Assembly (NCBI GenBank): GCA_016937015.1
Contig: JAFGWT010000161.1
Coordinates: 11,130-75,129, forward strand
Length of the DNA: 64,000 nt
Direction: 5' to 3'
DNA from: Deltaproteobacteria bacterium
Lineage (GTDB): Bacteria > Myxococcota_A > Polyangia > JAAYKL01
Below, piece by piece: positions 26,912-64,000 of this stretch (position 1 is the first letter of the stretch; each line of letters opens with the position of its first letter). A program made the translations under genes and the position numbers. A model generated the notes under the pieces. The model worked only from the letters and a program-made list of their open reading frames with translations, searched no databases and was not told the origin of the DNA.

Positions 26912-26920
26912 GTTATTGGT

Positions 26921-35899: not shown

Positions 35900-36237
35900 A
35901 ATTTTTTACTGTTTGCCCTTAAAAAATTTTCGTTGGCTGACATGTATGTCAGTGTATATGTATCGTTAAGCAATTGTTGTGCGTTGTTTTGCGTTGAATC
36001 ATCCTGCTTCTTTTTTCAGCTAGTGCGCATCAGCGCGTTGGTGCTTTTCCGATACGACCATAATTATAAATAAGAGTGACGGAGATCGATAAAACGCTCT
36101 TGAGTTTCTCTCCGCCCTATAATAATTTATTTCAACTTACATACTAGCGCACCATTACGTTCGAGGGGCGACGAATGTTGCTTTAAATTCCAGTTAGATA
36201 TTTGTCACAACACCGTGTTTTACTATCGTAATTCATC

Positions 36238-36243
36238 GAAGGA
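36238..36243 (+). promoter_or_regulatory. Shine-Dalgarno-like GAAGGA, 10 nt upstream of the giant-ORF ATG
   Basis: Read directly: GAAGGAattgtcagtcATG. Confidence 0.4.
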
Positions 36244-36253: not shown

Positions 36254-36397
36254 ATGCGACTATTTTGCAATCCGTGTTTAGGTTTATTTTCAAATATACA
36301 TTCTCTGCTGCTGCAGGCGAATGCGACGAAGCGACTTTGGGCGGCCTTTACTACACTGCTGCTTTCAGCCGTTACTCTGCCATCGGGACTACACGCC
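36254..36397 (+). other. Predicted N-terminal signal peptide of the giant protein
   Basis: MRLFCNPCLGLFSNIHSLLLQANATKRLWAAFTTLLLSAVTLPSGLHA | ESAKV: a basic KR, a 15-residue hydrophobic core and an A-x-A-like site (L-H-A). Confidence 0.6.
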
Positions 36398-39300
36398 GAA
36401 TCCGCTAAAGTCATCGTCGATATACGCAGCAATGGCACCCTGTCAGAGCAGGACGTAAATGCGTCGTATATAGTATCCGTTTCCGACTGCTCCGAAATAC
36501 TGGGGTACCGCGTTGCAACAACTGAAGACACACCGTTATTCAGCATGGACAATGCCATTTTCAGTGTCGATTCCTCATCATGCGAGTTTCAGATTCTGCT
36601 GACTGAAAGCGATTTACTTGTGCCGGCAGTTGAATTGTTTTTTTTCGACAATACGACGATGATGTTCTCCGAGTATTTTGCAATCGAACAGATGCCACCT
36701 GCCCTCGAAATGGCGGAACAGGGTGCGGTGAGTATCCAGACCATTGATGGGCAAAATCAAATCGTGTTGCAGTTTACTGCAGAAGATGAAACAGACATTT
36801 CGTATGTGTCCTGGTCCCTTGTGGGGCTTCGGGCATCAGATTTACGTTCGGCGGGCGGCGTGTTGGAGACGGCGAAGAGGAGGGCATTTGTAAACACCCG
36901 AGGCGCCAGGCGGATTTATCCCGAATTCGATATGCAGACGCTGTATACCGCCCGGATGCCGATACCGGATGGTACCTTCGATATTAGTGACTTTTACGCG
37001 AATGGCATTATTTTTGTGGAAATTGACGCTGTGGATGCATCCGGCAATGTGGCGTCGATATCCCGAATGATTATTCCCGGTGGCAATCTGCACGAAGAGG
37101 CATATGGGCTGCAGGTATTTCCGGAACGCATTGTCTTTTCGAATATTGCAGAGAGTGTCACGTTAATTCCCCGAGTTGATTTCCAGTTTCGCGGCGAAAC
37201 CGAACTTACTGGTGGTGGTCATGGTGTCCGATATGTTTCGTCGCATCCGGATTTGGTCCGTGTCACCAGTTCCGGCGTTGTATATCCACTGGTGGAAACA
37301 ACCACTGAGTCCAACATAACCATTACAGTCAGCTATCCCGATGTGCTGCTGCCGGTTGTGATACCGGTGGAAGTGGATGCCAGCAGACGCATTGTGTCTC
37401 TTCGGGCCACATCCCTGAATGACCAGGACCAGTTGGTTCTTCCAAGATTAAACAGCAAATTCTATTTTCCCGACATGCTGGCAGTGTTTGACGATGGTAC
37501 AGAAGCCGCGTTAACATCCCAGCTCGTTTTGGAATGGAAGCTGGCGGATGACGCTGTTGGTATTCTGGAAATTGATTCTGATGAAATTCTGTCGCGCGCG
37601 GCGATTTCTTCGGATGCGCCGTTAAAACTGCATGCAACCGTCCAGCTGCCAGGTTTCGATAATATCACAGCCGCGATTGACGTGGTAGCTATAGATGCAC
37701 CCCCTGCAGCAGAAATCGAATTATCAGCGGAGCGCGTCAATGTGGGAGATATGCTGGTCATTTCTGCCGAAGCGGATGACGATGTTGGGATTAAGGAAGT
37801 TCAATTCCTGGTGAACGGGATTCTTGCAGGAAAACGTCAGTCTGAACCATATAATCTATCGATTTCACCATCGGAGGATTTTCGCGATTCACAAATGACG
37901 ATTGCCGTGGTTCCTGTTGATACTGCGGGGCAGTCTGGAATACCAGCTGAGAAAAAAATCGTGGTGGATTCCGTTGCGGATGCCGCCGACTTAAAATACG
38001 CGATAATCAGTCCCAAACTACAGGAGCGGTTTGTCGAACTGAGTCCGGTCACTTTCGAAGTTGGTCTTTACGGTAATTCGTTTGCACCTGATTCTTCCCG
38101 TGCGTTATATGCGGAGTTTTTTGCGGATGGGAGTCTCATTGGCCGTGCGCATCAGTCGGCAACGAAAAGTCTCGTTCCACCGGGGGGAGAAAAATCGGCT
38201 TATGTCGAAACATGGGCTGTTGATTCCCTTGTACCTGAGATTGCCACCAGCGAGACCAGTTTGTCTTTTTACGCAGTGCTCCATCTGCGTGATGGCCGCA
38301 CGGTTCAATCCGACAGCGGTCTGATTCGTATTGTTGAAAATCATGCCCCCCTTGCGCAACTGGTAGCACCCCTTTCCGGAACGACGGTTGCCGCCGGACA
38401 AACATTGCAGGTGGTAGCCGAGGTTGTCGATGATACCCTTTATAAGGGAACGGAAATCGTGCTTTTTCAAAATGACACGGTTTTTTCCAGTCAGACATAT
38501 CAGAAGAGCACAGAAGGTGGGGACAGTGCCGGGTTGAATCGGGAGACTTTTACCTATAGCGTTCCACTCACCCAAGACATGCTGGCCACAACTCAGCGAT
38601 TCCGAATGGAAGTGCGTGATATGCATGGAAAAGCAGGACACTCTGAAACAATTTCGGTTTTTGTAAAACCGGACACGCCGCCTTCTGTTGCCATTTCGTA
38701 TCCGGTTGATGGCGCCAACTTTGTGGCCGGAATGCCCATTGAGCTGCGCGCCTCCGCTGTGGATGACGTGGGTGTGAAGCACGTGGATTTTTACGTTGAT
38801 TCAAGACTGGTGGGTTCCGATTACAGCGCACCTTTTGCCTGGACTTACGAAACCGACAGTACCATAGAAGATGCCAGACCGATAATGGTGTACGCTGTTG
38901 CGGAGGATACCCGGGGAAATCGGTCGCAAAGTGATTCTGTGATGGCCCTGTTGGCTAAAGATACGCAGCCACCGGTTATCAATATTGCTGCGCCGTCGGT
39001 CACGGGAACGTCCGGTGGTGAAGATGTTGCCACGGTTCTGGAGAATACAACACTGGCCTTTAAGGTGAGTGGTTTCGACAATGTTGGCGTCACCAAAACC
39101 GAACTGAAGGGCGTTGGAATCAGTGCTGGCGTGTTTGTATTTACCGGCGACCTGTCCGATTCAATTTCTGGCGAACTTTTTTATCCTGAAACAGTGCCGG
39201 GCGCGTTGAATGCATTTTCCGCCATTAAAATGATTTCTGTTCCAGCTTATCATGAAGGTAATCAGTACCCGGTGCAAGTTGTGGCTACCGATGAAGCCGG

Positions 39301-42300
39301 GAACAGTTCAACTGTGCGCATTAATGTGCAGGTCAAAGCCGATGAAGCGCCTGTTATTTCGGAAATTCGCGGCGCCCGAAAGATCTGGTTCCCCCGGGAT
39401 ATTATGGGGGTATATATTGCAGCCAAAGATGATCTGATGATCTCGCGAATTGATCTGTCTGTTTTTATCGATGGAGAATCGTTTGCCCGTCTGAGCGAGG
39501 AACGATTACTTGAATCCCAGTCCGCAATGACGCAGGAGCGATTCGACATTGATCTGCCTCAATTTGGTTTAACCAATGCAAATCACGACGTGCGTGTGGA
39601 AATAGATGTATACGATAACATTGGTCAACATGTTGGGGGAGAAGAAACGTTCAATGTCGTGGGGGATGACACAAGTCCAGTGTTTGCGATAAGTGAACCT
39701 GGACTGGGTCAGCCCATGTATCAGGGAGAGAGCCAGGTCGTAAAATGGCGGATCTCTGATGGATCCAGTTTGAAACGACTTGAAATCTATCAGGACGCGC
39801 AACTGGTTTTCAACAGGGATTATACGTCAGGAATATCCAGACGAGCGGACAGTGGACAGTTTGTAATAGCTATCCCGGCGTCTGTGGCAGAGACCAACAT
39901 CCACGCATCTTTTGAAGATGTATTTGGCAATTCGGACACGTATGACCATGCGTATCGAATCGTCGCGGATGCGGCGCCCGCCGTCCGCATCACTTCGCCG
40001 CCACCGGGGACGCGTTTCGCAGAAGGTGAGGCACTGTCTCTGGCATTTTATGTGAGCGACGACCGAGAGGTTGATTCGGTGAATGTATTCATGGAGTCCG
40101 AAAGTGAAACAATTAATATCTATAGCTTCACTGCGTTGGAAATAGCAAATGCGACAGCAGCCGGTGCCTCCTTAAACAGTAAAACCAGAGTACCTCACAG
40201 GACCGATGATGGGACGCCGCAAATGAAAGTGGGTGTCGTCGCGACCGATAATGGAGGCGGCAGCACGACGGCCTATTTGCAGGTGGAGATCACCGATGAT
40301 CTTGAACCGCCGCGTCTTGAAATGCGTATTCCCAATGCTGACGTCACCGCGTTTCCTGGAGACTATATCTCCTTCAAAGGAGAGTGCCACGACAATATTT
40401 ATGTGGAGTCGTTGACTCCTCTACTCATGGATACCGCAGGCGAACCGGTTGCATTGCCGGAGGCGGAGCTCAAGCGACGTGAGTCTGTAGAGACCGTATC
40501 TATCCCCAATCCCAACTCTTTCGGTTCGATGATTGTATCGACCACCTTTGTGCTGGACGGGGAGGGGCGAGTACAGCTTCCTGCCGACCTGATACCCGAT
40601 CGAACATATCGCTTTTATCTTGAAGCCAGTGACGCGGGGTACAACGTTGTTCAAAGCAGCGCGATTGATGTTCTGGTTGTTGCGCCGCCGGCGGATGAAT
40701 CCGGTCCTGTTGTTAATGTGAAAAAGCCCGATAGCTCAGAGTACGAACAGACTGATGTTGTTGCAACTGTGTATCTTAAGGATGATTCCCCTATTGAACG
40801 CTATGAAGTCTTATTGAACGGTGAAGTTCTTGCTGCACAATCGGGTGGCAGCGACACCTCGCTGACACTTACAGCTGATCTTCGCATTCCACCTTTTGAT
40901 TCATCTGATGACGCCACGAATGTCCTTAACTTCTCTGTTGTCGCTGCAGATATTCATGGGAATGAGACAGTATTTGCAAAGCAGGTCGTTGTAATTGAAG
41001 ACGTTCCGCCGACGTTTGCTGTGGTTGATCCGGTGCCCTCCGCTGAGGTGGTAAAAGGCGCTATTGCGTATCAGACAATACTGGCGACCAATGACTATGC
41101 ATCGCTGGAAGAACCGATGGTTTTTTATCCGGTGTATTCGTCAATCAGTAAACTGGCGGCAGGTGACCTTGAGGATGGTGGACGACACCCGGTGGGGCGG
41201 ATTTATTCCGCGGGAGACAAGCGTGTACCGTATATAACAATGGACTATCCCGAAGGGATGGCGCTGCCTGGGAGTGTACGTCTATATGGTGATGAATATC
41301 TATCCGTAAATGCAACCGGCGAAATGAAAGTATGGCCGCCCTCGTGGCGGGAGACAGTATTGCATACTGCTCCCACAAATCGGTTTATGCGGGTTGATTT
41401 TGGCGCTGATTACACTGTCACGTATCTGGTTGAGGAACTCAGTGAAAATGCCTGTGACGGCGCGGCGTTGGAATACACAGTTACCGATGAAAAAGGGATT
41501 GATCTGTCTGATATTGGGCAAACACACGCGTTGTCAATTGAACCAATAGTGACTGACACTCATGGCAATGAGGTTGAAACGTTCATTGATCATATTCGGA
41601 TTGACGCTGTAAATGTTTCGAATGTTGGCAGCTACCGTTCTGCGAATGGTTCCGAACATCGTGTGAAATATCAACCTGTTGTATCAGTGTACATCCACGA
41701 TGTGGATATCAGCGCCGATACGGATAAGCTCGCTGTGATTGCCGCTTCGAAGCCCGTTGTGAGAGACGCAATCGGCGCTGGCATGTACAGCACCATTTTT
41801 CCGCTGGCGAATGAGTATGATCTGAAAGCATTCAATATTATCGCTTTCGGCTTTGATCGAATGACGGCGGACGATCTGATTTTACCGCTTGAGGTGCTCT
41901 CAAGCCGGCGGGCTGCAGCAGATGAAGTGTCGCCGTCTGTTTCGATTTCTGCGCCATTGAACGGGACATCGGTGGTGTCCAACAAACAGTTCACCGTGCG
42001 CTTTGATATTTCTGACAACACAGATGGCGTTCGGTCTGTGCGATTGTATGAAAACAATGGCACGCTGATCAGGGAAATCGGCGGACGGTTTAAAAAAACC
42101 GCATACGCCATCCCATACGAGGTTCCCGCGGACGTGGTTGAAGGGGAACTGGCGTTAAAAGTTGTGGCAGAAGACTACAGCGGAAAGGCGGGATATAGCG
42201 AAATTCATTTGCCGGTTCGCCCCAACGCCAGACCGGAACTCACATATAATTCATTTGCCAGCTATAAAGTAAACGGGCAGTACAAAAAGGTAATAAGTGA

Positions 42301-45300
42301 TGCTGCCATGTTGAACTATGGCGAGTTCTGGGTACGGACGGGTGAGGATTTCAACGTCAATTTTTCCATTAACGACGATGCTGGACTCGCTTCCTGGTCT
42401 ATGTGGATGCTCGATACGCTTGAAAACCGTGTCTCGATGGTTCATGGCGAATCCTTTGATTTGCCACCCTGCCCTGGCCTTTATGTGACTCAAAAAACGA
42501 TCGATGCAACGATGGCGCTGACAAGGAACCAATCGGTGCAGTATGAACTCGTCGCAACAGATATTTCCGGACACGAGACCAGTCGAAAATTTGTCGTACA
42601 CCCATTGGATAATATCGCACCTGAAATTCGTTTTATTGAACCAAAGAGTGATCAGCATGTGGTGTCAGGTATTTTCAGAATGAAAGTGGGCGTTGTTGTC
42701 GCTGACGATCGCATTCTGTCTGCCAATGACATTAAGATTTATGCCAACGGTGCAGAGCTGTCCATTGGTCAGTACGACGAAGTGGCTATGTTCACCGAAC
42801 ACAACAACAATGAACCGGTACTGGATGTCACCGTTGATCAGGCGTTTCTCGATATTTTTGACAGCATGGAGCGCAAATATTCCACCCTGGTGGCGGACGA
42901 CTTTGGAACTTTCGATGCGCCCAACTCTAAACGGTATGCCATATCTGTTGAAATCCCACCTACCTTGACTGCCCGGACGGCCCAGCTGGATTTGATGGCG
43001 ACGATTCAGGATTCAGATGGTGTTTTCAGCAGTCACCAGCGCACATTGAACATTGAACCCGATGAAATCAATCCTTCGGTAAATGTGAAGAGCATGGATG
43101 ATGGTTTCCATGCGGTTGAAGGGGCTTCCTTTGACGTTGAATTCAGTGGAATGGATAATGTGAAAGTTGATCGCATGGCAATGTCCGTGGCGTACAAGGT
43201 TGTAACCCCTGATGGGATGCAGCGTCTTTCTTCTTATGGTGATCCGGTATGGTCAGTACAGGGGATTTCGAATATTGATTATGAACCCGTCAGCACACTA
43301 AATATAGATACCCCCTGGTATACGCGAAACATTCCGGTAAAACGAATTTACGAAATACTCGAACTGATTGGCAATGTGCCTGTTGATGACGATCTGCTGT
43401 TTTACGTAATGGTCAAATTTGATGCGACTGACAGCAGCGGAAATACGTATCAAAGAGTGGTTGCGTATCCGATAAAAATCGATGAACGCCCGTTAGTCGA
43501 TATTGTGGCTCCAATGCCTGGTGCAACAGTGGTTGAAGGCAATCGACTGCCTGTGAATGTTCATGCATTTGATGATGTCAAAGTGGAGAACGTACGCTTT
43601 CGTGCAACGATTGGCGCGTCAGAGACTGAAATATTCAACGAACTCTTGTATCAGTCTCCATACCAGGTGGCCATCTACAATGTACCGGCGTTTGATCCGG
43701 CTTCCTACGACAATAATTTGCTGACAATCCATGTTGAAGCCGTTGACTCATATGGTGTGGCGTATGGAGATTTTGATGCACATCGCGCTGAAGAAACGAT
43801 AACCGTTGAGATTATAGAAGACCAGCCCCCAACAGTCGCCATTGGGACGCCGATGACTGGAGATGAGATTTCTGAAGGTGAGTACCTCCTCATCCAGGTG
43901 AATGCGATAGATGATATTGGTGTGGACCAGGTGACGGTAAATGTGTCTGGGCTCATCAACGGTGATCGGACACTGGTTGATGCCACTTATCCCTATGAGT
44001 ATCTCATTAAAGTGCCATATGGGCAGGCGGGCCGGGATTTCAATGTTGATGCGACCGTGAAAGAAATCAGGTATCAGTCTGATGCGCGGACGAGTCAAAG
44101 TGCCAACACCGTGACGGTCCATGTGTTGAAAGATGCGGAATCCCCGGCGATTGTTGTGCAGGAACCCTCTGAAACTGGGGCAACTGTCTACGAAAAGGGA
44201 TTTTTACAGTATGCAGCGCTCGTTACAGACAATGTTGAGGTGAGCTCGGTTCGTATAAATCTGTATGCTGATGATAACCTGGACGGTGTTTTTGATGCGG
44301 ATGAGGTTGTCAACACCACACTTAAAACAACGCCGCCCTTCAAAGGAACGTTTATTACCAAACCATTTGAAAGTTATCTGGCTGGCGGTATGACACCGCC
44401 GGATCAGATGAACCTCAGAGTTGAATGGATAGCATTGGATGGCGCGGGAAATGAAAGCGCAGCGTTCAGAAATGTTGCGTTGATTCGTAACGCGCCACCT
44501 GAAGTTGTTCAGCTGCAAATACTGGATGAACGCGGCTACAATATGGGTAACGGGCTAACCGAAATCACTGAAGGAAGAGGTATTGTTGTCAGTGTAATCG
44601 CGCAGGATCGCGAAGCAGGTGTGGATTCTGCTCGGCTGTATACAGCCTATGGTACGGAATTTTCAGATGAATCGTATCAGAAGTTTGGTCAGGACGATGC
44701 GGTCCCGTTTCAGTTTCATGTAAATATTCCCACGGGACGCGTTGGTGAAAAATTCTCATTTAGGGCGGATGCAATCGACCTTGACGGATATACATCTGAT
44801 CTCTCATTCACGCGGGAAATTGAGATTGTCGCGGACCTGCCTCCGAATGCGAAAATTGTCAAACCCGCCAATAATCACTCGGTACTGATTGAAGGCGAGG
44901 ATATTGAAGTTTATGTTGAGGCGACAGACGACCTGGGCATTGATGGCATCGATCGCGTCGTTTTCTATGTCAATGATATGCCGGTTTATACGGCCTATTC
45001 GCCATACTCGAACTTCGCCGGATCGTTTGCTCAGGATCATATTTATCGTGCGATTATCAGCCCACCGGCAGGAACAGATGGGTTTGCGGTTTATGCAGAG
45101 GCATTTGATATTCTGGGACATTTTACCAGGACCCAAACGGTGATTATTGGTTCGGTGGCAGACACGGTGAAGCCTAAGCTTTTAATTCAATCACCAGTCG
45201 ACGGTGAAATTCTTACCCAGAATGAACCCCTGACAATTGCAGCGTCCATTGAAGACATTGGTGACGCCGAAGAACGGCACGTATTTGTGAAATTCGTTCG

Positions 45301-48300
45301 GGAGTATCAATACAGTGATGCGATCGGTCCTGTCGATATTGACACTGACGTGACACAAATGCCGCAAAACGGTCAATGGATTGAGATTTCAAGCACAGAT
45401 GAAATAGAGATCTTTAATGTCGCCGAAAAGAGCGACCCCGAAAATTATTTCTATTGGTATGAACATCAGTTCCTTGATGTGGCGGGCACTAAAATTCTCG
45501 ACCGTGATTTTCTGCGCAATGAGCGAGTACGGATGGACGTTACTGTGGTTACGCCAAATCATGTTGTGAAAAAAACAACAGTTCACGAAATTGGTCTGCC
45601 GGTAAGCAAACGCACATTCATGAGCTATTCAGAAGGCAGCAGGTCTGGAAAAGGCCTCTATTACACCACCATCGATCAATTCAAATCCATGGAACGCAGG
45701 GGGGCAGTAATTGCCGCATGGTCTGACAGTAATCCGTTGCTGTGGGAGCCTGACTTAAACAATCAGAATGCGCCGGCGCCAGGATGTACCGGTCTGTTTA
45801 TTTCTGACAGTACCCTTGAAAATGTGGTGGATGACAATGGTGACACTTACGTATATTCAGATTTAGTTACCGGCGCGTCGTACGTATTTGCGGGCAATAT
45901 TTCCGAGATTCATGCTGATGCCAATTTTATCGCTGCTGCAAAATCCGGATCACCGGAGGGTGATTGGGCACGCAGCGCCAATTGCAATGGCATTATCGAT
46001 AAGATTGAACAGAATGACCTGTCCGGCGATGTGGACCTCGAACATCGTGCAGGTGAGTTGCTATTATTTTCGGTAAAAAATGATGAAGGCACTCTGGGCG
46101 TCCCATACCAGCTGGTTGGTCGAATTGATATGCCTTATCCAACCGTTCATGGTATTGCCCGTAAAGATAATCTTGCATTGGTGGCCAACGGAGCGGGTGG
46201 TGTCCAGGTGATTGATATTTCCAGTATTTATTCTCCGTATCACGTTGGGTATATTAAACCCAACGGGTATGCAAGAGATGTAAAAGTGGCCGGTTCATTT
46301 GCGTTTATTGCCGCATCCCATGAAGGACTGGTTGTTGCGGATCTGGCTGACCCAACCATGCCGATGGTCTCCAGCCTGGATACAACTGGTGTGGCAAACC
46401 GCATCTTCATTGATGGTAAAACCGCGTACGTAACCGATATGTCCGGCGATGGCTTTGTTTCCCGTATCAATATTGTCGATATTTCGGACCCATTCGCTCC
46501 GAATTTTGAAAACAGCATTTCACTGACGCCGGCGCGAAATGATCTGGTTGAAAATGGCGTTTACGATGTTTATGTGTCTGGCGGTAAGGCGTATGCAACG
46601 GTTCATTACAAGGATCAGTCAGATCAGCCGGCCCAATCTGTTTTGGAAGTGGTTGATCTTTCGAAATTGGATGACCGTACTCTTGATGCCACTGTTCCTG
46701 CTGTTATTCACCGAGACGCCGATTGGGATGATTACGGTGCCCGAACGGTGACGATTGCCGAAGGTGGCGTGTCTGTCGCCGCAGCCAAACAGGGGATTGT
46801 GCGAATTGATTTACCCACCCTCACAGTACTATCGAATCAACCAGCTGCATTTGAGCAGGATGTGCCCACTGGCGGCATGGCAATTGCGGTGGAACTGTCT
46901 GCCGTTGTGTCGGCGTCGACGGACCTGGGTGAGTTCTTTACAGTGCATGAACTGGATGCAGCAATGGGGCCCAATGTTACAGCGGCACTGTTTGATATTG
47001 GTTTCATGAAAGTTGATGGCGATTCAAACCGGCGCATTGTGCAGCTGGCACTGAAAGACGGCCAGCAGCTTACCTCAAATCAAAAATACGTCGTTAGCGT
47101 ACATTCCGGCCTGGCACCGGAAGTTGGACTTCCACTTCAGGATACAGTTCAGTTTGAGTTCTATACCAGTGCAGCGGGTGATGCGTCCGGGCCCAGTATT
47201 GCGGGTATTATTCCTCAGCAGGGACCTGTTTCAGGTGGAACCATCGTGATGGTCTATGGTACCGATTTTGGAGATTCACCTGAGTTGTATATCGGTGGGC
47301 AGCATCTTGTGGTGGATGAAGTGGTGGCGGCACCTGACCCCGACTCACCTAACTACGGCGTGACGCTCGAGTCCTCTGACAGGATATATGCACGAACCGT
47401 TCCCAACTATGCGGGACCGGCGGCGGTTGAAGTGGTTCATGAAAACGGCTTATGGGATGAAGTGATCGGCGGATTCACATACGTTGATGATTTGTTGATT
47501 TCGTTTATCACTCCAGCTGTCGTTCGAGTTGAACAGCAGGGTGAAGACACTCCTGTGCAGGTCGTGGGATATGGCTTCCACGACGATATACAGATTCGCG
47601 CATGGCAAAGCGGACATCCCGAAACAGCGGTTACCAGCGAGGTGGATGGGGATCGCATTCGGCTCTACAGTTCAGAAAAGCTTACGTGGCGCATTCCTGA
47701 TTTTGACGGCGCGTATCGTGGCTTCGTGGATGTTGAAGTCTCGGATGAAACAGGACGCAAGTATCTTCTTCCCAATGCACTGTTTTATGGTCGATTGAAT
47801 GTGAGTACAGCAGTTGATTTGGCAACCGAGTATGTAACCAAAGTAGATGAAGATGCTCCGGAACAGCCTGTCACTGATACAACAAAACTGCCGTATGGAG
47901 AATTGGTGGATATTGCATCGGATTCCGGTCTAGGTCTGGTCTACGCTTTGGGACATGGGGCTGGAAAAGTCGATCGTTCTCTGCTGCCTTCGGAATCCGC
48001 GTTGCGGCAAACAGCGCCACCCAGTTGGATAGCGCTGTTATATTATGAACGCGACAATCTGGAAGCTGCGGCGCCACTGACGGGGTTGGGATATTACAAT
48101 CTGCGTCCGGATTTAAAATCCAGAGCGCTTACACTGCATGAACAGAATCTGTACGTGAGTGCGAAAGGCTATGAATTTAAATACTTCGATACACCGTATG
48201 AGAGCAGAACATGGTTGCTCACTTATGACCGGGAGGACAGACGCCCCGGTGAATTCTCTGCCGAATCTAAAGACAGGGAACCGCTCAATTACCTGCCGTT

Positions 48301-53600: not shown

Positions 53601-56600
53601 TCGGTAATGACACGCTGCCGTACGTGTTCCTAGACAGCAGTACGCTTGAAATTGATTCTAAGGATGTTTTGGCATTGGTGAACGGTGCCGGTGAATACAA
53701 CCTGAAGGTCAATGATGGCGACCTCTTTGCCTTCTCTGCAGGCGCAATTTTAATTGGTGCACGTACTTCGGAGAGCCATTTTGAATTGTCCATGGACTCC
53801 GGTCTGGTGGAAGGGGGGCCGATTGTTACTATTCGGGCCGACAGGCAGGCGATCCTGCCCGGAACCAGGGTGCGAATGCGATCCGTCGCAAATCGTTGTG
53901 AGAATTGGCAGCCGGGGGATGAGCAGCAAAGCTGTGTTATCGAGAGTGTTGAAGTGGCGCCCGGCCAGATGATTCCAGATCTCAAAGATGACGTTGTTGA
54001 CCTGCGCACATTCCAATTTATGGTTCCCGGGGTGATAACGCCGGAACGATACAATGTATATCTGGTGATAAATGGCGAGGAAGTTTTGGTCGATGATTTC
54101 TCTTATACCATAGGCGAAGGCCGTCGAATCGATCTGCCGAACTATCCTCCAACGGTCATGGGCGGAGCAGTCTTCAGCGATGACAGGTTGTTTGTGGGAG
54201 TAAAAGATGGTCAAACCGGCAACACCACGAACCGCCAGCTGATTCAGTATGGTTTCGAAATATACGATGTATCTATTTGGGAGCGACCTGTTCGCCTGGC
54301 TCAAATGGCAACGACATCGCCCGTATATGGCGTTGAAGTTGCGGGTCAACTGGCCTATCTTGCCAACGGCAGCGATGGTCTCAATGTTATTGACATACAG
54401 AATTCGCAGAAACCACAAAGTCTATGGCACATGCCGGTGCCAGGAAGTGTTGCCACTGATGTTTCGTTTCTGGCGCCCAATATTCTGGCGATGTCGGTGA
54501 TAGACGGTGACGGTGGGGGATACATTCGTTTCTTTGATGTGAATGATCCTGAGCTGGACCCACCTGTGGGCAACGGGTATGGCACTATTTCGTTTTCTGG
54601 AGGCGACCTCTTTGGGGAGCCAGTGGATATTGAATGGCACGAAAACACGTTGTTTGTATTGCTTAACGATGAAGGCGAATTGCGTCTTGTTCGATTGAGT
54701 GGATTTAACACAGCCAATGGGGTGAGCTGGAAATCTGAACTGATCGAAAGGGGACATATCGCTTCCGGCGCTGATGCTACGGACTGCTCCATGAATGTGC
54801 AGTTTGGTCAGGTCACCGTGACCAACGGTGCGGATTATCTGGTGCTCCAACAGAATGCATCCGATAATTATGACACTGTGTATTGGGACGGTGTGGGTAC
54901 GGGCGCGCATGAATTGATTTCTGATGGGGGCTCACTCTTTATCTCATATGATGAGGGATTGATTCATATGCCGACGCCGGATTTGGTTGTGTCTGGTGTA
55001 AGCGTTCCCGAAGACGCCGAGTTGATGATGGACGAGTCTCTGATAATTCAGTTCAACCATCTGATAGACACTTCAGAAGCAACGATCAAGTCGGGGCTGT
55101 TGCTTCGAGATACTTTGGGAAATGACATATCTTCCCTGTTCGACATCACAGCCATCAATACACTCGCCGGCGCGTTTATTGAGATTACGCCTAAGGAAGG
55201 TGCCACCTACACTGGAGAGATCTTCGTCGATGTCACATCGGGGATCTATGATATTCTCGGCAATCCACTGAAGTACACGATCCAAAGACGTGTCACACTG
55301 GCCAATGGTACTCGGCCCCGCATCATGCGTGTTTACAGGCAGGTAGTCGATGGCGCTCAGAATAATTTCTTCCATGGTGAAAACGGTGAGGTTACGGTTG
55401 TTGACGGACTGGGGCTGGGCAACGATACAAGTGCACTTCGGATTTGGCTTGGCGACGACCACAATGATGATTTTGAGATTCCTGCAGAAAACATCATTAG
55501 TTTGAGAGATGATGAACTTGTTTTTACATTGCCGGATATAAATATCAGTCAATCCATTGCAGCACTGTCGCTGACTGTTTCAAATAACGGCATTGCCAGT
55601 CAGCTGATCGGTGCAGTGATTGTGCAGCCCAGGGTGGTCGTCAGTGATGTTTATCCTTCGTCGGGACCACCTCAGGGTGGGGGTAATGTGGATATTTACG
55701 GGGCAGGGTTTAATCACAGCATCAATGTATACTTCGATGGCGCCCTGTCAGGTGATTTGAAGGTCAGAAGCAGTAATCACATACAGGTTCGCGTACCTGC
55801 CGGTCAGTTTGGCTATGCGGATGTGGCGGTGAGCAGTAAACTGTTTGCCGATGAGCAAAGTGTGCTTGAGGAAGCATACTTCTATACCAACCAGGAACTG
55901 GGGGCCGTCGACCTGTCTCCCGAAGGATATCGGGCGAGTCCGGTTTCGAAGATGGTAGCAAAGGATCAGATTCTGTACGCCGTCACCGGGGGACAATATA
56001 ATGCCATATATACAGACGGACACAGCCATATGTTTACCGGCACCACAGGACAGTTGGTATTGTCTGATATTTCTGATCCGGTGCACCCGGTGCTTGTCTA
56101 CGATGAAATCGCGGATGTGGAATGGCCGTATCATCTAAATGATACATTTCCGCCAATGGGCTTCACTGATGTGGCTCTGGAAGATCAGAATCTTTTTATT
56201 ACAGGAGGTAACCGATTCCTTCATTTGGATGTCACCCTTGCTGCGGATCCATTGCTTGTTCACGGAGAAGACCTTTATGACAGTACAGGGGCAGCAGATG
56301 TCGCGTGGTCACTAAAGGTTCGTGACAACATCATTTATGTAGCCTGTCAAAGTGGTATCCGAGTATTTCGGCGAACGGACGATAATCGGATCGCGCAGAT
56401 CGATTTTATTTCCGCTTCTGAGTTGGGTGGTTCTCCCAGACAGATGTTCCTTGATGGCGCACTGCTTTGGGTGGCGATTCCAGGGTCGAAAGAAATTGTG
56501 GCAGTGGATTTGGCAGAAGGAGTTTTCGAGGTTGTCGACGAGGTATGGATCACAGATATGAACGGCATAGATACCGTGCCGAGTCATATGCTCGTTCGGG

Positions 56601-59450
56601 ACGATTTGATGCTGGTATCCACTGGCCTGAGTGGCAAAGTGCTGGCCTTTGATGTCGGAACGCCGTTTGATGGGGAGGTCGTGTCGCAGATTACACTGAC
56701 CCAGCTAAACGGGTACAGTGAAATTTTTGCCGGAGAACTCACGATTCAGGCGCAGACGTTGTACGTTGCATCCGGGCAAGGGGATTTGCAGCTGTATGAT
56801 ATTGGGGACTGGCTAAACAATGAGTTTGCGAAAAAGCCGGCATTGAAAAATTACTTTGCGCCACGTGGCGCCGTGTCATCCATTGCACTGGGAAGGGGAA
56901 CAATTTACGCTGGCACCGCGCATCTGCTGCGAAAGGGTGATAACGCAATCGTTGAAAACCCAATCGACAGTAATCTCGAAGCTGGTGTCATGGCCCTCTC
57001 AGGAGGGATTAACACGTTTGATTATAATCAGCTGGCAGTTGTGGGGCAGGTACCAAATCCGAGAGCGTCACATCCGGCGCTGAGTCCGGTGGAAATACAG
57101 TTTAATCGCATTCTGGATTCGGCTCTGCTTTCAGATTTCGCAGATGAGTGGCTTATGGTGACGTATCTGGGCACTCCAGTTCCCGGTTATATTTCCAGTC
57201 AGGTAAATGCAACTGGATCCAGACTGATTTTCAGACCCACCCAGCCGTTCATCAACAATGCACAGTATCTTGTTACCGTATCGCAGGATGTGGCGGATAT
57301 TCATGGGGAGACGCTGACAACAGATTATGTGTTCAGATTTGTTGCCAGCGCGAATGCGAGGCCTGCCATCGAATCGTTGAGTCCAGCGGAAGGCAGCTGG
57401 CACGGGGGGAACGAACTGATTATTCGCGGTTCCAATTTCGGTACAGACACGACGGTCAAAATTGGCGGGATAGCGGTACCTGATTCTGACATTCAGTTCC
57501 CTGATACCGATGAACTGCGTGTCATTGTCCCGGCTCTAACGCAATCGCCCGAATCGAATATTGAAGTTGGTGTGACAGTAGCAAATGGCGATTTGGAAGA
57601 TGTACGTACCAATGCCTATACATACGTGGCAGATATTACTATCGATGAGATTGGCAGCTACAATGATGAGAATCAGCAGTTCAATGGCAACGATCATTTG
57701 TATTTCTATAATCAGCGGGAACAGGTTGCCATTCGCGGCGCCGGTTACTGCAGCGAGACCGTTGTTAAGATAAATGGCAAGCCGGTTCAACAGGCCCGAT
57801 TGGTCGACGAGCGAACGATTACGTTCATTATTCCCGACCAAACCATTGGCAGTCTTTCAGTTGAAGTGGCCAATGGCAACAATGGTCCCTGGGTTACCAA
57901 TACCGATTTGGTTGTGCAGTTCGCGCCAGATCAACGACTGGCAAACACACCGGGGGTGACCTTTGGTCGCTATGGCGATTTGCTGGCAACTGCAGTTGGT
58001 CGTATCGTTTCTGTTTCAACAACACAGGACTCCGAAATGCCGCTGGTTTTATCGTCCATAAACGTGCCAACGGACAATAGTGGCGACACAGTGGCAGCTT
58101 TGGCGCTCAACCATGATTATCTCGCCGTTTTGTTGAGTCAATCCAGAACGCTGCTGATATATTCCCTTGAAAACATCTATTCGCCGACCCTTGAAAACAT
58201 CATTCCCAATCACGGCAACGTTCAACATCGTCGATTACAGATCATTGACAATCAGTTTGTTTCATTTGATGGCACAGATGTCCATATTGGAAATCTCATG
58301 GGCGCCGATTGGGATACCGTTATCGTTGATACCGCAGAAATTGGGGCAGTTGTTGATATTGCGACAGATGATAAATATCTGTATGTACTCGGCGAATACA
58401 TGGTGGATATTAGAGATATTCAGAACTGGAACCTTTCTGCGTTGAACGCACCGGTTTCTCTGGAGCTGATTCAGCCGCTGAGCATCAGGGTTTCTCCCCA
58501 GCGAATGCTGGTGCGCGCCAACACAGGTATTGAGTTATTTGCCACCGGTACATTGGAGTCAAGTGGCGAGATCATTTCACTTGGAAGTAAAGCGTATTCT
58601 GAAGTAACAGATGCAGCCTTTTCCGGTGACATCCTCGCTCTCGCGTTGCGGGTTGATGGCGCACCGGGATTGGTACTCTATGACGTGGATATGCCCATTG
58701 TCTCCGAACAACTGGCGCTCCATCAGTTGGCGTCTGTTAACCGGGAATTGTATTTTGGATGGAATCATACCATAAACGTTGCCGGTATGCGGTTTGAAGG
58801 TGACCTGCTTGAATTCACAGGCGGGAATCTCGGATATTTTAACGTTCGCATTCCTTTTGCAAATGTTACAGAAAGTTTGCCACCCCGGTATATCGCGCAC
58901 CCGACTGCATCGATTGGATTGCGGATTTCCGGAGATCCCGAGGCGTGGGAAAATGTCCAACTGGGCGTGACCGATCAAAGTGGTGACACCTTTTCCGGCA
59001 GCACGGATTTAGCAGGGAAATTCCTGGCGTTTGATGTTACCGGTGATGAATATATTGTTGATACACGATATGACCTTTCACTTTATAATAACCCTGCAAA
59101 AACGGTGGACGGCGCTGATTTAAATATTGATCTACCCTGGACGCTGATGATGAAAACATTTGCCGATAGCCCGGTACGTATTCATCATGTTTCACCCTCG
59201 CGTATCCGTACGGAAAAATTGACGACCATTGGCGTCTCGGGCGCTAATCTTGACACGGTTACGAGTGTGTCGCTTAACGCCATTGAAATTACGAGCTGGC
59301 AAAGTAGCGATGATGGCACGTTGCTTTCGTTCGATATACTTTTATCGGAGCCTGGCATTTATTCGCTCAGACTGGAAAGCGATGATGATGTCACTCAATT
59401 GCCGGCAGCGCTCGCAGTGGACTCATATTTGTCGCTTAGCGATATTTATA
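45900..59450 (+). repeat. Seven protein-level super-repeats (about 1.85-2.2 kb each): LVIVD-type propeller blades, then a Big_5/SbsA-like Ig domain, then two IPT/TIG domains
   Basis: IPT/TIG anchors recur at ~47225 (GPVSGGTIVMVYGTDFG), ~49665 (GPQSGGNLVTIRGKGF), ~51600 (GPINGGTVVTIWGRGF), ~53800 (GLVEGGPIVTIRA), ~55660 (GPPQGGGNVDIYGAGF), ~57385 (EGSWHGGNELIIRGSNFG) and ~59190 (SPSRIRTEKLTTIGVSGANL). LVIVD-like strands occur between them: GIAVISLVDPDKP ~48370, GGVVALDISDPANP ~50750, GGVIVLDLSTPLNP ~53005, DGLNVIDIQNSQKP ~54375, QLVLSDISDPVHP ~56050. Nucleotide identity between units is low. Confidence 0.65.
50578..50701 (+). other. Frame discontinuity inside the giant gene: 41 codons of an LVIVD repeat encoded in frame +1, flanked by frame +2
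   Basis: Frame +2 reads ...FAVLDSLPVPASR then VLFRATMHILPPAPGDW-TGA(50630) LLISLTPPIWKLLRG-TGA(50678) ATG(50681) NSEQYT DVAINGGIAYIALGSGGVVALDISDP... Frame +1 over 50578-50700 reads SVVSGDYAYLAAGTGGLVIVDISDPSNMEIVARVNELGTVY, which joins both flanks as a canonical repeat. This implies one missing base near 50579-50584 and one extra base at about 50701. Confidence 0.85.
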
Positions 59451-62400
59451 CGGACAATACGGCAGGAGCGTCTCTGCTGTCCAATCGTGGTGGTGATCTG
59501 GTTCATGCGGATGGCACTGGATTGGGGGATTCCGAATTTTCGTTGCATCTGGTGGCTGCCACTGGTGGATTTGTACCCAATGACACCAACAGAGTACCGT
59601 CGTTTGTATTTCTAAATGACGGTGAAGGTGGTTTGGAATTTGAGTCCGCGGCATGCGTTCCAAATACCGACTATTATGTGGCGATGGTCAAACCTGTTAC
59701 TGATGAGTTGATATACAGCAACGGTGTGCTGACATGTGTGGACGACACAGGTCCTCGTTTGCTGGGCGCAGTGGGCCTGACATATGCAACGCCCCTCGCT
59801 TTGACTTTTGACGAAGATATTCAGGCCGAGGGTGCGATGGTGACAGCAACTGCGTTGGATTACAGCGGGACGGGTGAGACAGATGTTTCCGCGATTTTCG
59901 AACTGCAGGTTGTGAACCATGTATTGACATTGCAATTAAAACCGGGAGAGACCCTGAGTCACAATACCCGCTATGATGTTGCGATTACTGGCATTGGAGA
60001 CGTATCGTCAACTGCAAACATGTACATGGGAAGCGGTGAACCAGGAGCATATCTATATAATTACAGAACCGCTGATACCCTGGCGCCGGTTAACCTGGAA
60101 ATAATGGACGTCGCGACTGGGCGAACATCAAGTGAAATTGATGCACTGGTGCGTGAAAAATCGTATCGTTTTGCCCCCAAAGGGACAGACAATATTTCTG
60201 CCGGTATAAGTTATACTGTTCGCATCTCCTACGATGGTGGTCTGTCATTTGCGAATACTCCGTTGTCTGGTGGCACATTTGTTGTTAAGGCTGAGTCCGC
60301 CGATACGGCCATTGTTGTACAGCTGACGGCCTCCGATAGTTCAGGTAATCACGCAATTCGCAGCTTCGATTTTTCCATTGCTGAGCCGGAACTCTATATT
60401 TCAAATTTGACAACCGAGCCTGGCGAAGTGGAAGAGGCGTCCCGTGCGGACATTATTTTCCATTACTATGGGGCGGATGTGGATTTGGTGGCCGGTGGTC
60501 ACATGGTGATAGATGGGGTCCCATATGTTGTTTCGATGACCGAAGTGGCAAATGGTCTCTTTGAAGCACGACTGAACTATCGCAATCCACGTTTGATGGA
60601 TATTGCACCTGCGCAGGAAATTAACGTAACGCTGGTAATTGAATATGGTGACGGTAAAAACATCACGGCCAACGATAGCTATGATTTGGTGGCAGATGCA
60701 ACCCCACCAACAATTCGTATTGTTGCACCGGCCGATGATGCGGCGATTCCTCTGGATAGAGAAGTAGATGTGGCGATTCAGTCATTTGACCAATATGGCG
60801 TCGATGATGTCAGTGTCGCCATGAACGGAGGCCCATTCGCATCCCTTGCGGATCCCACGGTGTTCTCCTTTACGCCGACAACGCTTGATGATGTAGTGAT
60901 TCAGGCTCGGGCAACGGATTCCAGTGGTAACGAAGCGCTGTCGTCTCAGGTGGTGTTCCATCCGTACGACGCGGCAACGGGGGCACCCCGGGTGAGAATT
61001 CTTTCGCCTGAGAACGGCGACGTTTTGCGCGAACGGCAAACAATTGAATTGTCCGTTGAACTTGATAATGTAACGGATGCAACGCTGCATATTGACCTTG
61101 GCGCCGATGAGGCCAATCCGGCCAATCCAATCCCTGTTGCGATAACCCGCACTGTAGCCGAACCGACTCGGTTCCAGCTGACGGTCCAGATGCCGTCAAT
61201 AGATGGGACAATTGTGGCCTTGCTTCGGTTGGTGGACGACGCAACGGGAGTGAGTTCGAAAGTTTCTGTGCAGTTGTTGAACGACGATGTTGTTGCGGAA
61301 GAGATGCCGCTTGTTGTGTTGCCATCCGATACTGTGCTGACGGGAACTGAATTGCTGGTTTCTGCCACCAGACCGTCAAATATGACAGATTATAGTTCGG
61401 CATCAGTGGTTGAAGTATCTGGCGCATCTGACGATACAGAAGCAGTTGCACTACAGCCGGACAGTGTGGAAAACCGCATTTCAGTGGCGACAAATGATTC
61501 GCCCGTTACCGTCACTGCGACTTTGCAGGATGTGTCCGGAAATCAAAATACCACTGTACGCGAAGTGACCAAACTGACGTACCTTGATGATCTGATTAAT
61601 GACAGCATTTCGGTAAGTGAGATCTCAGTGGATGAGAATATTGCGGATATGGTGTTTGTGCCGGGAATCGGTGCGGACAGCGGCGCATTGGTGTACGCCG
61701 TCAATTCGAATAGCGGTGGATACCGAATTCAGTCTGGCTCAGATGTTGTCTATCAAAATGCGTTAGGCAGAGTGTCACGTCTGTTCTTTACAGGCGCTGC
61801 CATCGTATTTGAGGAGACAGATGGCGACGAGACGCTGCATCCTGAAATGGATGATCTTGGATTCTCAAGACGTCTTGTTTTCCTCCCGCTGGTTGATGGC
61901 AATTTCAGTGATGCCGTATTGCAACCTCTCTTGGGGGATATTGTCGGTGGTAGCGGAAATGTTATTTTCACTCGTCACGGTAATATTATTGACGGCGTTG
62001 CATTGGACGGGATGAGCAGTGTGCCATTGGTGGGACAATATGTGGCCGATACTGTCAAGTCGATTAGCGTGGATGGTGATCGCGTGTTTGTGCTGGCGGA
62101 AAATGAGGCCGGTGAGCATTCCATTTACGGTATCGGCATTGATAACACTACGTATCCTGCATTGAAACTGCTGTTTATGACAGGGGTGAGTACCGCAGAT
62201 GGCGTGCATGTGAATGGCGATTCCGTGATGACCTGGAACGGGTATGCACTGCATCTGTATCAGCTTGAGTCAGATGGGAATGGTGACGTTTCCGGAGCGC
62301 TGGTTGACCTGGGCGAAAATGTTATTCACGGAGACGCGCTGAATGTACTTTCAGACGGCGATCTGACTTGGTTCTATCTTGATAGCGATGTTCGAGAAAC

Positions 62401-64000
62401 CGCATGGTTTGCATACAGAGATGGCGAGATGGTGGGGAGCCTTTCGCCAGCGGTGACGAGAATCGTTTTTGGTGGCAGCGGTATGTTTAAGCTGATCCGG
62501 AATGACGATGCAACCTGGACCATTATTCGTCAGAATACCGTGGTGGAATCGGGTAGTGGCGAATTTGATGCCGTGGCTGATGTAACACCCAATGGCGTGA
62601 TGATAGAGACAACACGGGGAATTGGGACGCCGGGAGGGGATACCATCTGGTTTGAAGGCGCGGACGGTACACTTCTACCGGTCGCACCCATCTGGCGAAG
62701 CAGTGGCACAGCCTGGTTTATTGAGCGCAGTGTGATACCCGACAGTATCATTCGTGCCGTTTATATTGATCGGTCCGGGGTGACTGAGACGGTTGAGTTG
62801 ACGACAGATGACGCGCCGGATGCAACTGTTGCTGCATCTTTCCCGAATATCAATAGTGCAGTGACCCGCGGCGGGTTCGCTCCTGTTGTAATGACCTGGT
62901 CAAATGATTCAATTGCGGACGGGCTTGATGTGTACGTTGCGGGCAATGGACCAATAGGCATGTATCAGGGAACTGGCATGGTGTCATCGGGGTGGATGCC
63001 TGTTTCGAACTCCGAGACCATGACCTTTGAATACAGTTCATTGGCAACGACCATTCAGTTTGATGTTCCGCTTGTTGAAAATGCACCAGATGGTGGATAC
63101 GTGCAGATTTCCTCACCATCAAACAACGAGACGTTTGGCGAACGCAGTCCTTTGACTGTTTCGTATGCGGTGCCGGAACAAATGAACGGAGAGTTGTTGG
63201 AATATGCGGAAATTGTACTGGCAACGATAAATGGCGTGCGTGTGGATCGCAGACTGGTATCGCAGCGGATTGGCAGCGCAACAGTCGTTTTGCCGGAGCT
63301 GGATAGCTGGCAAAATCTGAATGTGACTGTGCGCGGATATTATGGTCTAACGTACCAGTATCTGACGTCCGACCCGGTGACCATTAAAGTTGTGCCGGTT
63401 TTGTCAGTGCCCGAACCCAAACTGTATACCACGTCGACCCGTTTGATGCGAGGTTCAATGTTTGAGGCATGGGTGGAAACGACCGCACCGGGCGCTGTAT
63501 TGGCCAACGTCAGTACCGTGAATCAAAATGGAGAACTTATCGCATCGGGAACAGACTCTGTGTCTTTTAATGTCCCAAACAATGCGACAAAGCTGGTCAC
63601 AACAGCCACAGTTTCTGATGGGTTGGGTAATGAACGATTTGTTTCTTCTGAGACCGCAGTTGTGTCGGCCATTCCCATGGCGGTTTCGACAGAGCGGTTG
63701 CCGTTTGAGGCTGCGTTGACCCGCGTTGATGGGACGATGTTTGCGTTGGACAACAGCGTGTATCTGCGGGACGCGGAAGCCAAAACAGAAAAACTGGCCA
63801 CGGTTGGCGGTCCCATTACCGCTATGGATGATTATGGCGATAAACTGATTGTGGCAGTGGCGCAACAGGGCCTGCTGGTGCTTGATCCGTCCAGAGAGTA
63901 TCAGGTGGTCGGAAATGCTGCGATAACTGGCACGGTCAGCACAATACTGGTGCAGAGTAACACAATGATTGCGGTGGTGGATGGTACGCTGGCGAAGTTC
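50681..64000 (+). CDS. Giant secreted/cell-surface repeat protein, part B (at least 4,440 codons, no stop within the window; probably the continuation of part A)
   Basis: In a manual codon-by-codon read of frame +2 from ATG 50681 to base 64000 (last codon TTC at 63998-64000) I found no stop. The domain content continues the same super-repeats, followed by further Ig-like modules (e.g. RIVAPADDAAIPLDREVDVAIQSFDQYGVDDVSVAMNGG ~60715, RILSPENGDVLRERQTIELSVEL ~60990). ATG 50681 may not be a genuine start. Confidence 0.85.

Follow-up and report, generated by a model that had tools for sequence, protein, structure and literature searches.

For bacterial proteins of more than 5,000 amino acids, surveys name two main classes, surface proteins and the non-ribosomal peptide and polyketide synthetases (NRPS/PKS; PMC11573180). 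Among giant surface proteins, the RTX (repeats-in-toxin) adhesins exported by type I secretion systems (T1SS), such as LapA of Pseudomonas, MpIBP of Marinomonas primoryensis, SiiE and FrhA, are megadalton-scale, acidic and calcium-associated, and consist largely of bacterial Ig-like domains. They carry no Sec signal; typical for the class are a C-terminal RTX/T1SS signal, many near-identical repeats and adjacent genes for an ATP-binding cassette (ABC) transporter, a membrane fusion protein (MFP) and an outer-membrane protein. Here we analyse a giant gene in a 64,000-nucleotide stretch of a Deltaproteobacteria bacterium (GenBank assembly GCA_016937015.1, contig JAFGWT010000161.1, positions 11,130 to 75,129), referred to as the window, to which all coordinates apply unless another contig is named. 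Its product resembles the RTX adhesins in the properties listed first and in a presumed outward reach from the Gram-negative cell, with binding via distal modules. In contrast to them, the window protein has a Sec signal, no RTX repeats and no two domains that are more than 36% identical, and the partner genes in its relatives encode peptidyl-prolyl isomerases (PPIases) and GspC and GspD. Since three defining features of the characterised RTX/T1SS class are absent, the giant gene is not a member of it.

For giant genes of the Omnitrophota, a preprint reports that gspD/E/F and a Rotamase_2 PPIase, which is conserved, are located nearby (West-Roberts et al., bioRxiv 10.1101/2023.11.21.568195). 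A pairing of type II secretion system (T2SS) and PPIase genes also occurs near relatives of the window gene, although these belong to other phyla and the two sets were compared by description only. The repeated unit of the window protein, a propeller followed by Ig/IPT domains, has the domain order known from the ectodomains of plexins (semaphorin receptors) and integrin alpha chains. The plexin A4 ectodomain is the top Foldseek match for residues 3850-4560 of the window protein, and some relatives carry FG-GAP heads of the integrin-alpha type. However, the resemblance is one of fold and architecture only, with about 10% identity and TM-scores of 0.16, and the bacterial protein is about ten times longer and has no transmembrane segment. 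GhpA, the grappling-hook protein of Aureispira (PDB 9flw), is likewise a giant extracellular protein of Ig-like domains and appeared at Foldseek rank 11. The match is weak and generic, with TM-scores of 0.13-0.17. We know of no sign that GhpA shares domain order or partner genes with the window protein. The PPIase pair of the relatives, with its parvulin domains, SurA-like N-domains and lipoprotein signals, resembles PrsA, the lipoprotein parvulin foldase of Gram-positive bacteria, and the periplasmic chaperone SurA. The PrsA arrangement is that of a membrane-tethered foldase for Sec-exported proteins. The pair differs from PrsA and SurA in forming a dedicated tandem in an operon with one client, an arrangement that is predicted from the relatives' genes for the region beyond the window. 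Giant bacterial surface proteins are already known as a kind, and nothing in this locus contradicts current understanding.

Independent translation of frame +2 (position mod 3 = 2) revealed no stop codon between 36104 and 64000. From the ATG at 36254 the frame runs on the forward strand through 9,249 sense codons, the last of which closes exactly at base 64000 with the frame still open (36254..64000). A Shine-Dalgarno-like GAAGGA, read from the sequence, is located at 36238..36243 (+), 10 nt before the start codon. GTG 36215 and TTG 36245 are the only alternative start codons, and a sigma-70-like site at 36202-36229 agrees with the consensus in 9 of 12 positions, which is a weak match. An earlier sequence-only reading of the stretch had described this very long frame with its ATG, its GAAGGA and its open end, and in all of this, as in placing the C-terminus outside the window, it was right. 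It had also divided the gene into two pieces, with a stop TGA at 50630 and a restart at 50681. The codon at 50630 is GTG, and there is one open reading frame (ORF). The TGA triplets close to this position (50631, 50638, 50647, 50679 and 50683) are all in the other two frames, because the codons of the LVIVD motif read CTG GTG ATT GTT GAT ATC TCT GAC, and a slip by one base explains the misreading. A pair of ORFs split by stops was rejected, as the claimed stops are absent from frame +2. The TAA at 36071, which had been given as the previous in-frame stop, is followed by two closer ones, TGA 36077 and TGA 36101, the latter being the last before the ORF. As reported earlier, the accompanying ORF list contains nothing longer than 225 aa in this region. 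The giant ORF is absent from it because the list omits ORFs that run off the source; of the two reasons that had been proposed, the missing stop applies, whereas excessive length does not, run-off ORFs being simply unlisted.

Given the local base composition, the log10 probability of encountering no stop over this span is about -208, and the remaining five frames contain 185-644 stops each. The relative synonymous codon usage correlates with that of ten neighbouring genes at r = 0.90 in frame, as compared to 0.32 and 0.07 out of frame. GC1/2/3 values of 0.59/0.41/0.49 are even across every 4-kb slice. One antisense frame has far fewer stops (185) than the other non-coding frames, and antisense ORFs of 150-225 aa are found on the minus strand at 38105-38782, 53596-55552 and 60870-61493. 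These ORFs are the usual shadow-frame effect and no evidence of genes. The codon usage, together with Pfam matches above curated cut-offs and homologues that are colinear along every residue, bears out the earlier statement that the translation is protein-like throughout. The window thus holds the 5′ part of one giant gene, which is intact and makes up two-thirds to four-fifths of the whole; the product has at least 9,249 aa and a mass of about 1 MDa.

Judged by its alignments, the window protein is an orthologue in a colinear family that extends across Desulfobacterota, Gammaproteobacteria and Myxococcota. For the first 1,200 residues we found 28 homologues that align along almost their whole length at 33-52% identity (a range also recorded for 25 proteins over the 1,200 aa), originating from metagenome-assembled genomes of Deltaproteobacteria/Desulfobacterales, Polyangiaceae, Colwellia, Kangiellaceae and Porticoccus. 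A conserved N-terminal block (GLRASDLR, AVDASGN, DFQFRG), which follows the signal peptide and a D-I-R motif in the family, is present in the window gene. With the last 1,200 residues a word-based search, which seemingly returns no proteins longer than about 2,100 aa, gave one partial homologue, and exhaustive HMMER searching gave 184 representative proteins, of which 63 reach E ≤ 1e-30. Single colinear high-scoring segment pairs cover up to 4,137 aa in the distal region. One such segment each aligns residues 5071-9249 with protein P0065 and residues 4439-8389 with protein P0093 at 35% identity, and colinear homology to metagenome contig L004 extends from residue 18 to 8358. A pattern scan of species-representative genomes, for which the patterns were taken from the trimmed alignment block A3 as alignment A1 was too divergent, yielded 44 loci, and the family is also found in 41 metagenome contigs. 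In 40 of the 44 genome loci, at GC contents of 0.32-0.72, the frame is free of stops as far as the fetched DNA reaches (at least 3,500 aa). The loci include Desulfoluna butyratoxydans MSL71, Desulfosarcina, the Olavius symbiont Delta 1, Ectopseudomonas oleovorans SDU_PSEU1 (a complete genome, with the locus on CP152345.1 from 540 to 561 kb and onward), Pseudomonas indica NBRC 103045, Phytopseudomonas dryadis, Psychromonas aquimarina ATCC BAA-1526, Hahella, Cellvibrio, Thiodiazotropha, Sedimenticola and Myxococcota. Genes of this size had been described as rare and functionally almost uncharacterised. The functional part of this statement holds; our literature search returned general giant-gene papers only and nothing on this colinear Ig/propeller family. 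With at least 44 species-representative genomes and 41 metagenome contigs, however, the gene is no orphan. Family members are already deposited under the generic names 'Ig-like domain-containing protein' and 'IPT/TIG domain-containing protein'. What sets them apart is the Sec signal, an architecture that is colinear without being repetitive, propeller heads that vary, and the conserved pair of foldases.

Some relatives appear in pieces. On metagenome contig L003 the pieces of 1,354, 2,136 and 11,168 aa make 14,658 aa in total, and those of L004 (893, 610, 1,449, 1,842, 472 and 8,610 aa) amount to 13,876 aa. In the Colwellia contig L002 there are pieces of 1,335, 292, 1,014 and 2,449 aa and more. 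On each of the three contigs the pieces lie on one strand and, taken together, follow the window ORF colinearly. The gene borders in these three contigs are only apparent, being frame switches inside continuous homology. In two of these relatives, both distant, frameshifts of 1 nt were located in homopolymer runs, in a C6 run of L003 (~14020-14030) and an A5 run of L002 (~13960-13970), and are probably due to sequencing error or decay. Both affect the same inter-domain linker (DDLEPP / DDQKK), which corresponds to window residue ~1350 (nt ~40300). Thereby a 'first gene' of about 1,340 aa is split off. In most other homologues the frame continues across this point, and the window, with GAA CCG CCG CGT at this linker, has no homopolymer run.

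The product is a Sec-exported, acidic, Cys-poor, all-beta chain in which non-identical Ig-like sandwiches are followed by propeller/Big_5/TIG units. In its N-terminus, MRLFCNPCLGLFSNIHSLLLQANATKRLWAAFTTLLLSAVTLPSGLHA|ESAKVIVDIR, a basic stretch precedes a hydrophobic core, which is followed by an AxA-type site. The Sec-type signal peptide comprises residues 1-48 (36254..36397, +), with the basic KR, the h-region LWAAFTTLLLSAVTL and a predicted cleavage at LHA|ES. About 25 N-termini of the family share this layout, with the AxA-type site just before the conserved D-I-R motif at the start of the mature protein. In the window this motif occupies residues 56-58 (36419..36427, +), and D56 and R58 are at least 90% conserved in alignment A1. 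The signal peptide has no lipobox Cys, and a second hydrophobic segment is lacking, as Kyte-Doolittle values stay at or below 1.6 in all other 19-residue windows of the 9,249 aa. The composition is acidic and nearly free of Cys (D 8.2%, E 5.7%, K 2.2%, C 0.2%).

Above the Pfam cut-offs we found Big_7 (208 bits, E = 2e-62) and, in the two halves of the protein, TIG (69 and 138 bits), Big_5 (44 and 54 bits) and LVIVD (PF08309; 44.6 and 68.3 bits, and 76.5 bits for residues 4626-5550, at a cut-off of 20.2). The individual domain copies were placed with iterated hidden Markov models (HMMs) built from these matches. An N-terminal string of beta-sandwiches with ten Big_7 domains extends over 37670..45352 (+; residues 473-3033), according to Pfam, the iterated HMM and an AlphaFold2 (AF2) model. 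The eleven Big_7 copies in total lie at residues 473, 690, 800, 1232, 1883, 2263, 2403, 2516, 2854, 2963 and 8141. Central super-modules, in which an LVIVD beta-propeller is followed by Big_5 and IPT/TIG, were assigned by Pfam and the iterated HMM to 46142..57913 (+; residues 3297-7220), and the order propeller, Big_5, TIG recurs from about residue 3300 to about 7200. Seven LVIVD repeats lie at residues 3297, 3339, 4122, 4772, 4814, 5567 and 6023, their range ending at 6059. The pair at residues 4772-4852 (50567..50809, +; 76.5 bits) is the site of the stops that had been claimed. Four Big_5 domains were located, at residues 3511, 4245 and 6915 and as a distal copy, together with eight TIG domains at 3644, 3747, 4462, 5104, 5737, 6458, 7034 and 7129. 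The distal conserved region (residues 7221-9249; 57914..64000, +) is cut by the window end and is mostly without a Pfam match; inside it, Pfam and the iterated HMM place a Big_5 domain at 59741-60049 and a Big_7 domain at 60674-60898 (+). In total the located domains account for about 2,370 aa, a quarter of the length, and Pfam has no match in the first 470 or the last 923 residues. Thus the signal peptide and the Ig-like, LVIVD, TIG and Big_5 domains of the sequence-only reading were recovered, but not Big_2, which was not among the Pfam matches; its place is taken by Big_7/Big_5, Big_7 being the Ig family that scores. The sole NCBIfam match above its cut-off is CoaZ_rpt_PGGG, the 'choice-of-anchor Z' repeat (60.6 bits, cut-off 30), which adds to the evidence for the central super-modules. 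A sequence search of the PDB gave two weak Big_7-like matches and nothing useful. An AF2 model of residues 1-810 from 26 sequences has a predicted local distance difference test score (pLDDT) of 82.5 and shows all-beta sandwich domains as beads on a string, with a helix at residues 26-38 and low pLDDT over residues 1-49. Its Foldseek matches are only chains of multiple Ig or MG domains (complement C3, DSCAM, titin). For the model of residues 3850-4560, WD40-type propellers stand beside the plexin A4 ectodomain (propeller plus IPT) among the best matches.

Long relatives contain 2,050-4,530 aa after the point equivalent to the window end, and in some metagenome loci the frame is open for 3,490 aa past a block which is itself about 740 aa beyond that point. 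In 11 relatives a cluster of Asp-rich TSP3 repeats (Pfam TSP3_bac) follows 1,495-1,580 aa past the same point. After it the sequences diverge. The conserved core measures about 11,000 aa. The last 1,200 aa of eight metagenome relatives contain 13 FG-GAP repeats in one type and 15 RCC1 repeats in another; further heads consist of LVIVD with PPC, LVIVD with Big_5 or weak FG-GAP-type matches, and in three of the eight nothing except TSP3 repeats is recognisable. Protein P0059 has BNR/sortilin-type repeats. None of 13 C-termini of relatives shows a hydrophobic tail or an LPXTG- or PEP-CTERM-like motif, and no RTX, T9SS, autotransporter, toxin or enzyme domain was found in the distal parts of 12 relatives. 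These C-termini are not tied to specific contigs, as no representative protein is at least 60% identical to any examined locus. Scanning genome and metagenome contigs with the last 500 aa did not reveal the continuation of the window gene itself. The source contig measures 81,068 bp and leaves at most 17 kb outside the window, in which a gene of this family has room to end. From the relatives we infer that the window gene should continue for about 2,050-4,500 aa, passing a TSP3 cluster about 1,500 aa on, and that it should terminate in a lineage-variable propeller head (FG-GAP, RCC1, LVIVD/PPC or BNR-sortilin) without membrane or cell-wall anchor.

In 15 of 15 metagenome loci with a visible 3′ end, two paralogous genes of 270-300 aa follow the giant gene within 1-160 nt on the same strand, and after this pair the same loci have a third gene of about 800 aa or more. 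Examples are L063 13893-18267, L065 16229-20471 and L053 16251-20483, to which 12 further loci are added. The paired small genes encode parvulin PPIase domains (Rotamase_3, Rotamase, Rotamase_2) and SurA-like N-domains (SurA_N) behind lipoprotein signal peptides, e.g. LGAC|S, LTAC|S or LSAC|N. Their domains and signals identify them as predicted PrsA/SurA-like, membrane-tethered periplasmic foldases. The third gene encodes a TSP3-repeat protein with CBM35/CBM6 or DUF7305. We found no published description of an operon with such a PPIase pair and TSP3 gene. By analogy to these loci, two lipoprotein parvulin/SurA-like PPIase genes and a gene for a TSP3-repeat protein should follow the window gene. 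In 11 loci of the Pseudomonas lineage, gspC and the secretin gene gspD lie directly upstream in divergent orientation, and they may represent a dedicated or orphan secretin module. In these 11 loci, of which L013 (6773-9347) is one, the gspC-gspD pair stands alone beside the giant gene; in L013 the next gene upstream encodes an aldehyde dehydrogenase.

On these grounds we propose that the product is probably a Sec-exported, chaperone-folded and T2SS-secreted binding fibre. The chain would cross the inner membrane via Sec, two dedicated PrsA/SurA-like lipoprotein foldases would fold it domain by domain in the periplasm, and the folded chain would be passed out through the T2SS, with gspC/gspD as neighbouring genes in the Pseudomonas members. 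It would then form a very long, calcium-stiffened extracellular fibre that attaches to a ligand or surface by the variable propeller at its tip, and its role would be that of an adhesin or matrix scaffold and not of an enzyme or toxin. As traits of a T2SS substrate the protein has an N-terminal Sec signal and no membrane anchor, either in its 9,249 aa or at 13 C-termini of relatives, and periplasmic foldases are encoded in the relatives' operon. Several observations weigh against this proposal. There is no gsp gene in the 36 kb upstream of the window gene, nor in the 10-kb upstream flanks of the non-Pseudomonas relatives, so that T2SS adjacency is limited to one lineage. The gene's own 3′ end lies outside the window, and PPIases, TSP3 gene and head are extrapolated from relatives that are 25-50% identical. 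About 75% of the sequence is without a Pfam domain, which makes an unrecognised activity possible, and the AF2 model of residues 3850-4560, from 7 sequences, is moderate only (pLDDT 65.7). Finally, our literature searches returned no reports on expression, localisation or binding for any family member. Taken by itself, the export-and-binding scenario appears to have roughly even chances, while there is hardly any doubt that the window carries a real, intact giant gene of the colinear Ig/propeller family. For the best overall explanation, which joins the intact family gene with export and binding, we estimate a probability of about 0.6.

As giant repetitive genes are often misassembled, the frame could in principle be an assembly artefact or a decaying pseudogene, be it through repeat collapse, a chimera or a frame in two pieces, and the split relatives L002, L003 and L004 as well as a decayed glycoside hydrolase gene just upstream of the giant gene would fit such a picture. 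Yet Tandem Repeats Finder (TRF) reported nothing within 36254-64000, and self-BLAST of 250-aa chunks gave a handful of internal matches, none above 36% identity, so that repeat collapse is no issue. Alignments to proteins or contigs of independent assemblies cover 9,249 of 9,249 residues, and each of the positions 51-9199 is spanned by at least one alignment with 50 residues on either side, which argues against chimeric joins. With 27.7 kb free of stops, even codon statistics from end to end of the ORF, a frame open across the fetched DNA at 40 of 44 genome loci, and the frameshifts of L002 and L003 read base by base as 1-nt homopolymer changes, an artefact is scarcely credible. The type I-secreted RTX adhesin of the LapA, MpIBP or SiiE kind, with N-terminal retention, identical bacterial Ig-like repeats and a C-terminal RTX signal, is suggested by size, an acidic Cys-poor composition, the many bacterial Ig-like domains and sub-threshold NCBIfam matches to T1SS_rpt_143 (27 bits, cut-off 66) and LapB_rpt_80. 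It is largely refuted by the conserved cleavable Sec signal peptide, which T1SS substrates do not have, by the lack of near-identical tandem Ig repeats (at most 36% internal identity, TRF empty), by the absence of ABC/MFP/TolC genes in the 36 kb upstream, and by the conserved partners of the relatives, which are PPIases and, in one lineage, T2SS genes. In addition, no HemolysinCabind/RTX match was obtained in the window or in the C-terminal parts of relatives, the window gene's own C-terminus lying outside the window. This reading is therefore highly improbable.

Polymorphic toxins or effector delivery proteins (CdiA/Rhs/MARTX-like), in which a conserved trunk carries a variable toxic C-terminus, also come to mind, given that about 11,000 aa form a conserved core and the C-terminal region changes from lineage to lineage. 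In the relatives, however, the variable parts are beta-propellers (FG-GAP, RCC1, LVIVD, BNR) or unassigned beta-rich sequence in which no nuclease, deaminase, peptidase or pore-forming domain was found, and the downstream genes are conserved PPIases and not small variable immunity genes. Motifs of two-partner secretion, Rhs/YD and pre-toxin regions were unmatched as well, and we regard a toxin as very unlikely. The main rival is a protein that is exported by Sec and retained in the envelope, as a periplasmic or envelope-spanning scaffold that never passes the outer membrane. A signal peptide without outer-membrane anchor or known sorting signal would agree with such a fate, as would dedicated foldases that are periplasm-facing lipoproteins and T2SS genes that are adjacent in Pseudomonas only. 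On the other hand, a folded chain of more than 1 MDa with lectin- or integrin-like propeller heads and calcium-binding TSP3 repeats is typically extracellular, the heads differ by lineage as expected of contact with an outside ligand, and the gspCD adjacency is kept across the 11 Pseudomonas loci. Retention thus seems unlikely, if clearly less so than the other rivals, and we prefer the secreted binding fibre.

More tentatively, and with the odds rather against it, the giant gene might belong to an undescribed but conserved module by which diderm bacteria export and assemble megadalton proteins. Its parts would be a protein of 11,000-14,000 aa that is non-repetitive and position-specific, two dedicated lipoprotein parvulin foldases, a TSP3-repeat partner and, in some lineages, a GspC/GspD of its own; it would be common to Desulfobacterota, Gammaproteobacteria and Myxococcota and would parallel the T2SS and PPIase neighbourhoods of the Omnitrophota. 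If this is true, the strict colinearity of about 100 different domains implies a defined extracellular structure with an exchangeable head and not a mere spacer. The size is exceptional. The system-level pattern is seen in the relatives, and the window itself shows the gene body only. As genes of this length are very rare in bacteria and usually fragmented or mis-called, the intact copy is useful as a reference. Since some carriers of the family can be cultivated and are genetically tractable (Ectopseudomonas oleovorans, Pseudomonas indica, Psychromonas aquimarina, Desulfoluna butyratoxydans), two questions become testable: by what means a chain of more than 1 MDa is exported along the Sec route and folded in a diderm cell, and which ligands are bound by non-repetitive giant fibres, for which the lineage-specific propeller heads are obvious candidates. 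For annotation, it is important to note that the largest genes disappear from ORF tracks when partial ORFs are dropped, and that single-base homopolymer errors split giant genes into several 'Ig-like domain-containing proteins'.

The giant gene had also been placed beside an exopolysaccharide (EPS) locus and an NRPS islet, and this neighbourhood was confirmed. As no upstream neighbour is conserved across taxa, both are a local circumstance, and we draw no functional link to the giant gene. The Wzx/Wzy-type EPS locus (582-21657) encodes glycosyltransferases, Wzy, Wzx, a Poly_export/SLBB protein, a PCP (polysaccharide co-polymerase)-like protein, a GH44 EpsB-like protein and an acyltransferase. 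Its best NCBIfam likeness is to Methylobacillus-type Eps and XrtA-system models, all far below the cut-offs (for XrtA-system models e.g. 408 versus 817 bits). That the giant protein is a PEP-CTERM substrate seems unlikely given these low XrtA-system scores and the lack of a hydrophobic tail at the 13 C-termini of relatives, its own C-terminus being outside the window. The NRPS islet (22923-33559) contains two divergent single condensation-adenylation-thiolation modules, 26921-30127 (-) and 30335-33559 (+), neither of which carries a thioesterase or other release domain. They are accompanied by an AsnB-type amidotransferase gene (22923-24899, -) and a truncated-looking ORF similar to Asn synthase (25574-26911, +). 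For the protein encoded at 30335-33559 the sole record is a 5.3-kb Logan contig (run SRR13394436), and that of 26921-30127 is not on record. Directly after the NRPS stop, a perfect 7-nt tandem repeat, GCCGTCT x3.6, occupies 33560-33584.

Between the NRPS islet and the giant gene lies the decayed GH62 glycoside hydrolase gene (33736-35077, +). The ORF 34465-34956 matches positions 105-236 of the Glyco_hydro_62 profile (98.5 bits), and the ORF 34793-35077 matches positions 232-272 in another frame, which indicates a frameshift at about 34.8-34.95 kb; nothing corresponds to the first ~100 positions of the profile. At 33736-34362 (+) we noticed a low-complexity ORF rich in Asp, Thr and Gly (DTGTDTGS...), in a region that is open on several frames of both strands and contains TRF arrays of 12-, 23- and 48-nt units (33783-34116). 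Logan contig L001 carries this 208-aa ORF as a called gene. The ORF shares the frame of the GH62 remnant, ends in a stop, and may be a former linker or N-terminal region of the GH62 gene.

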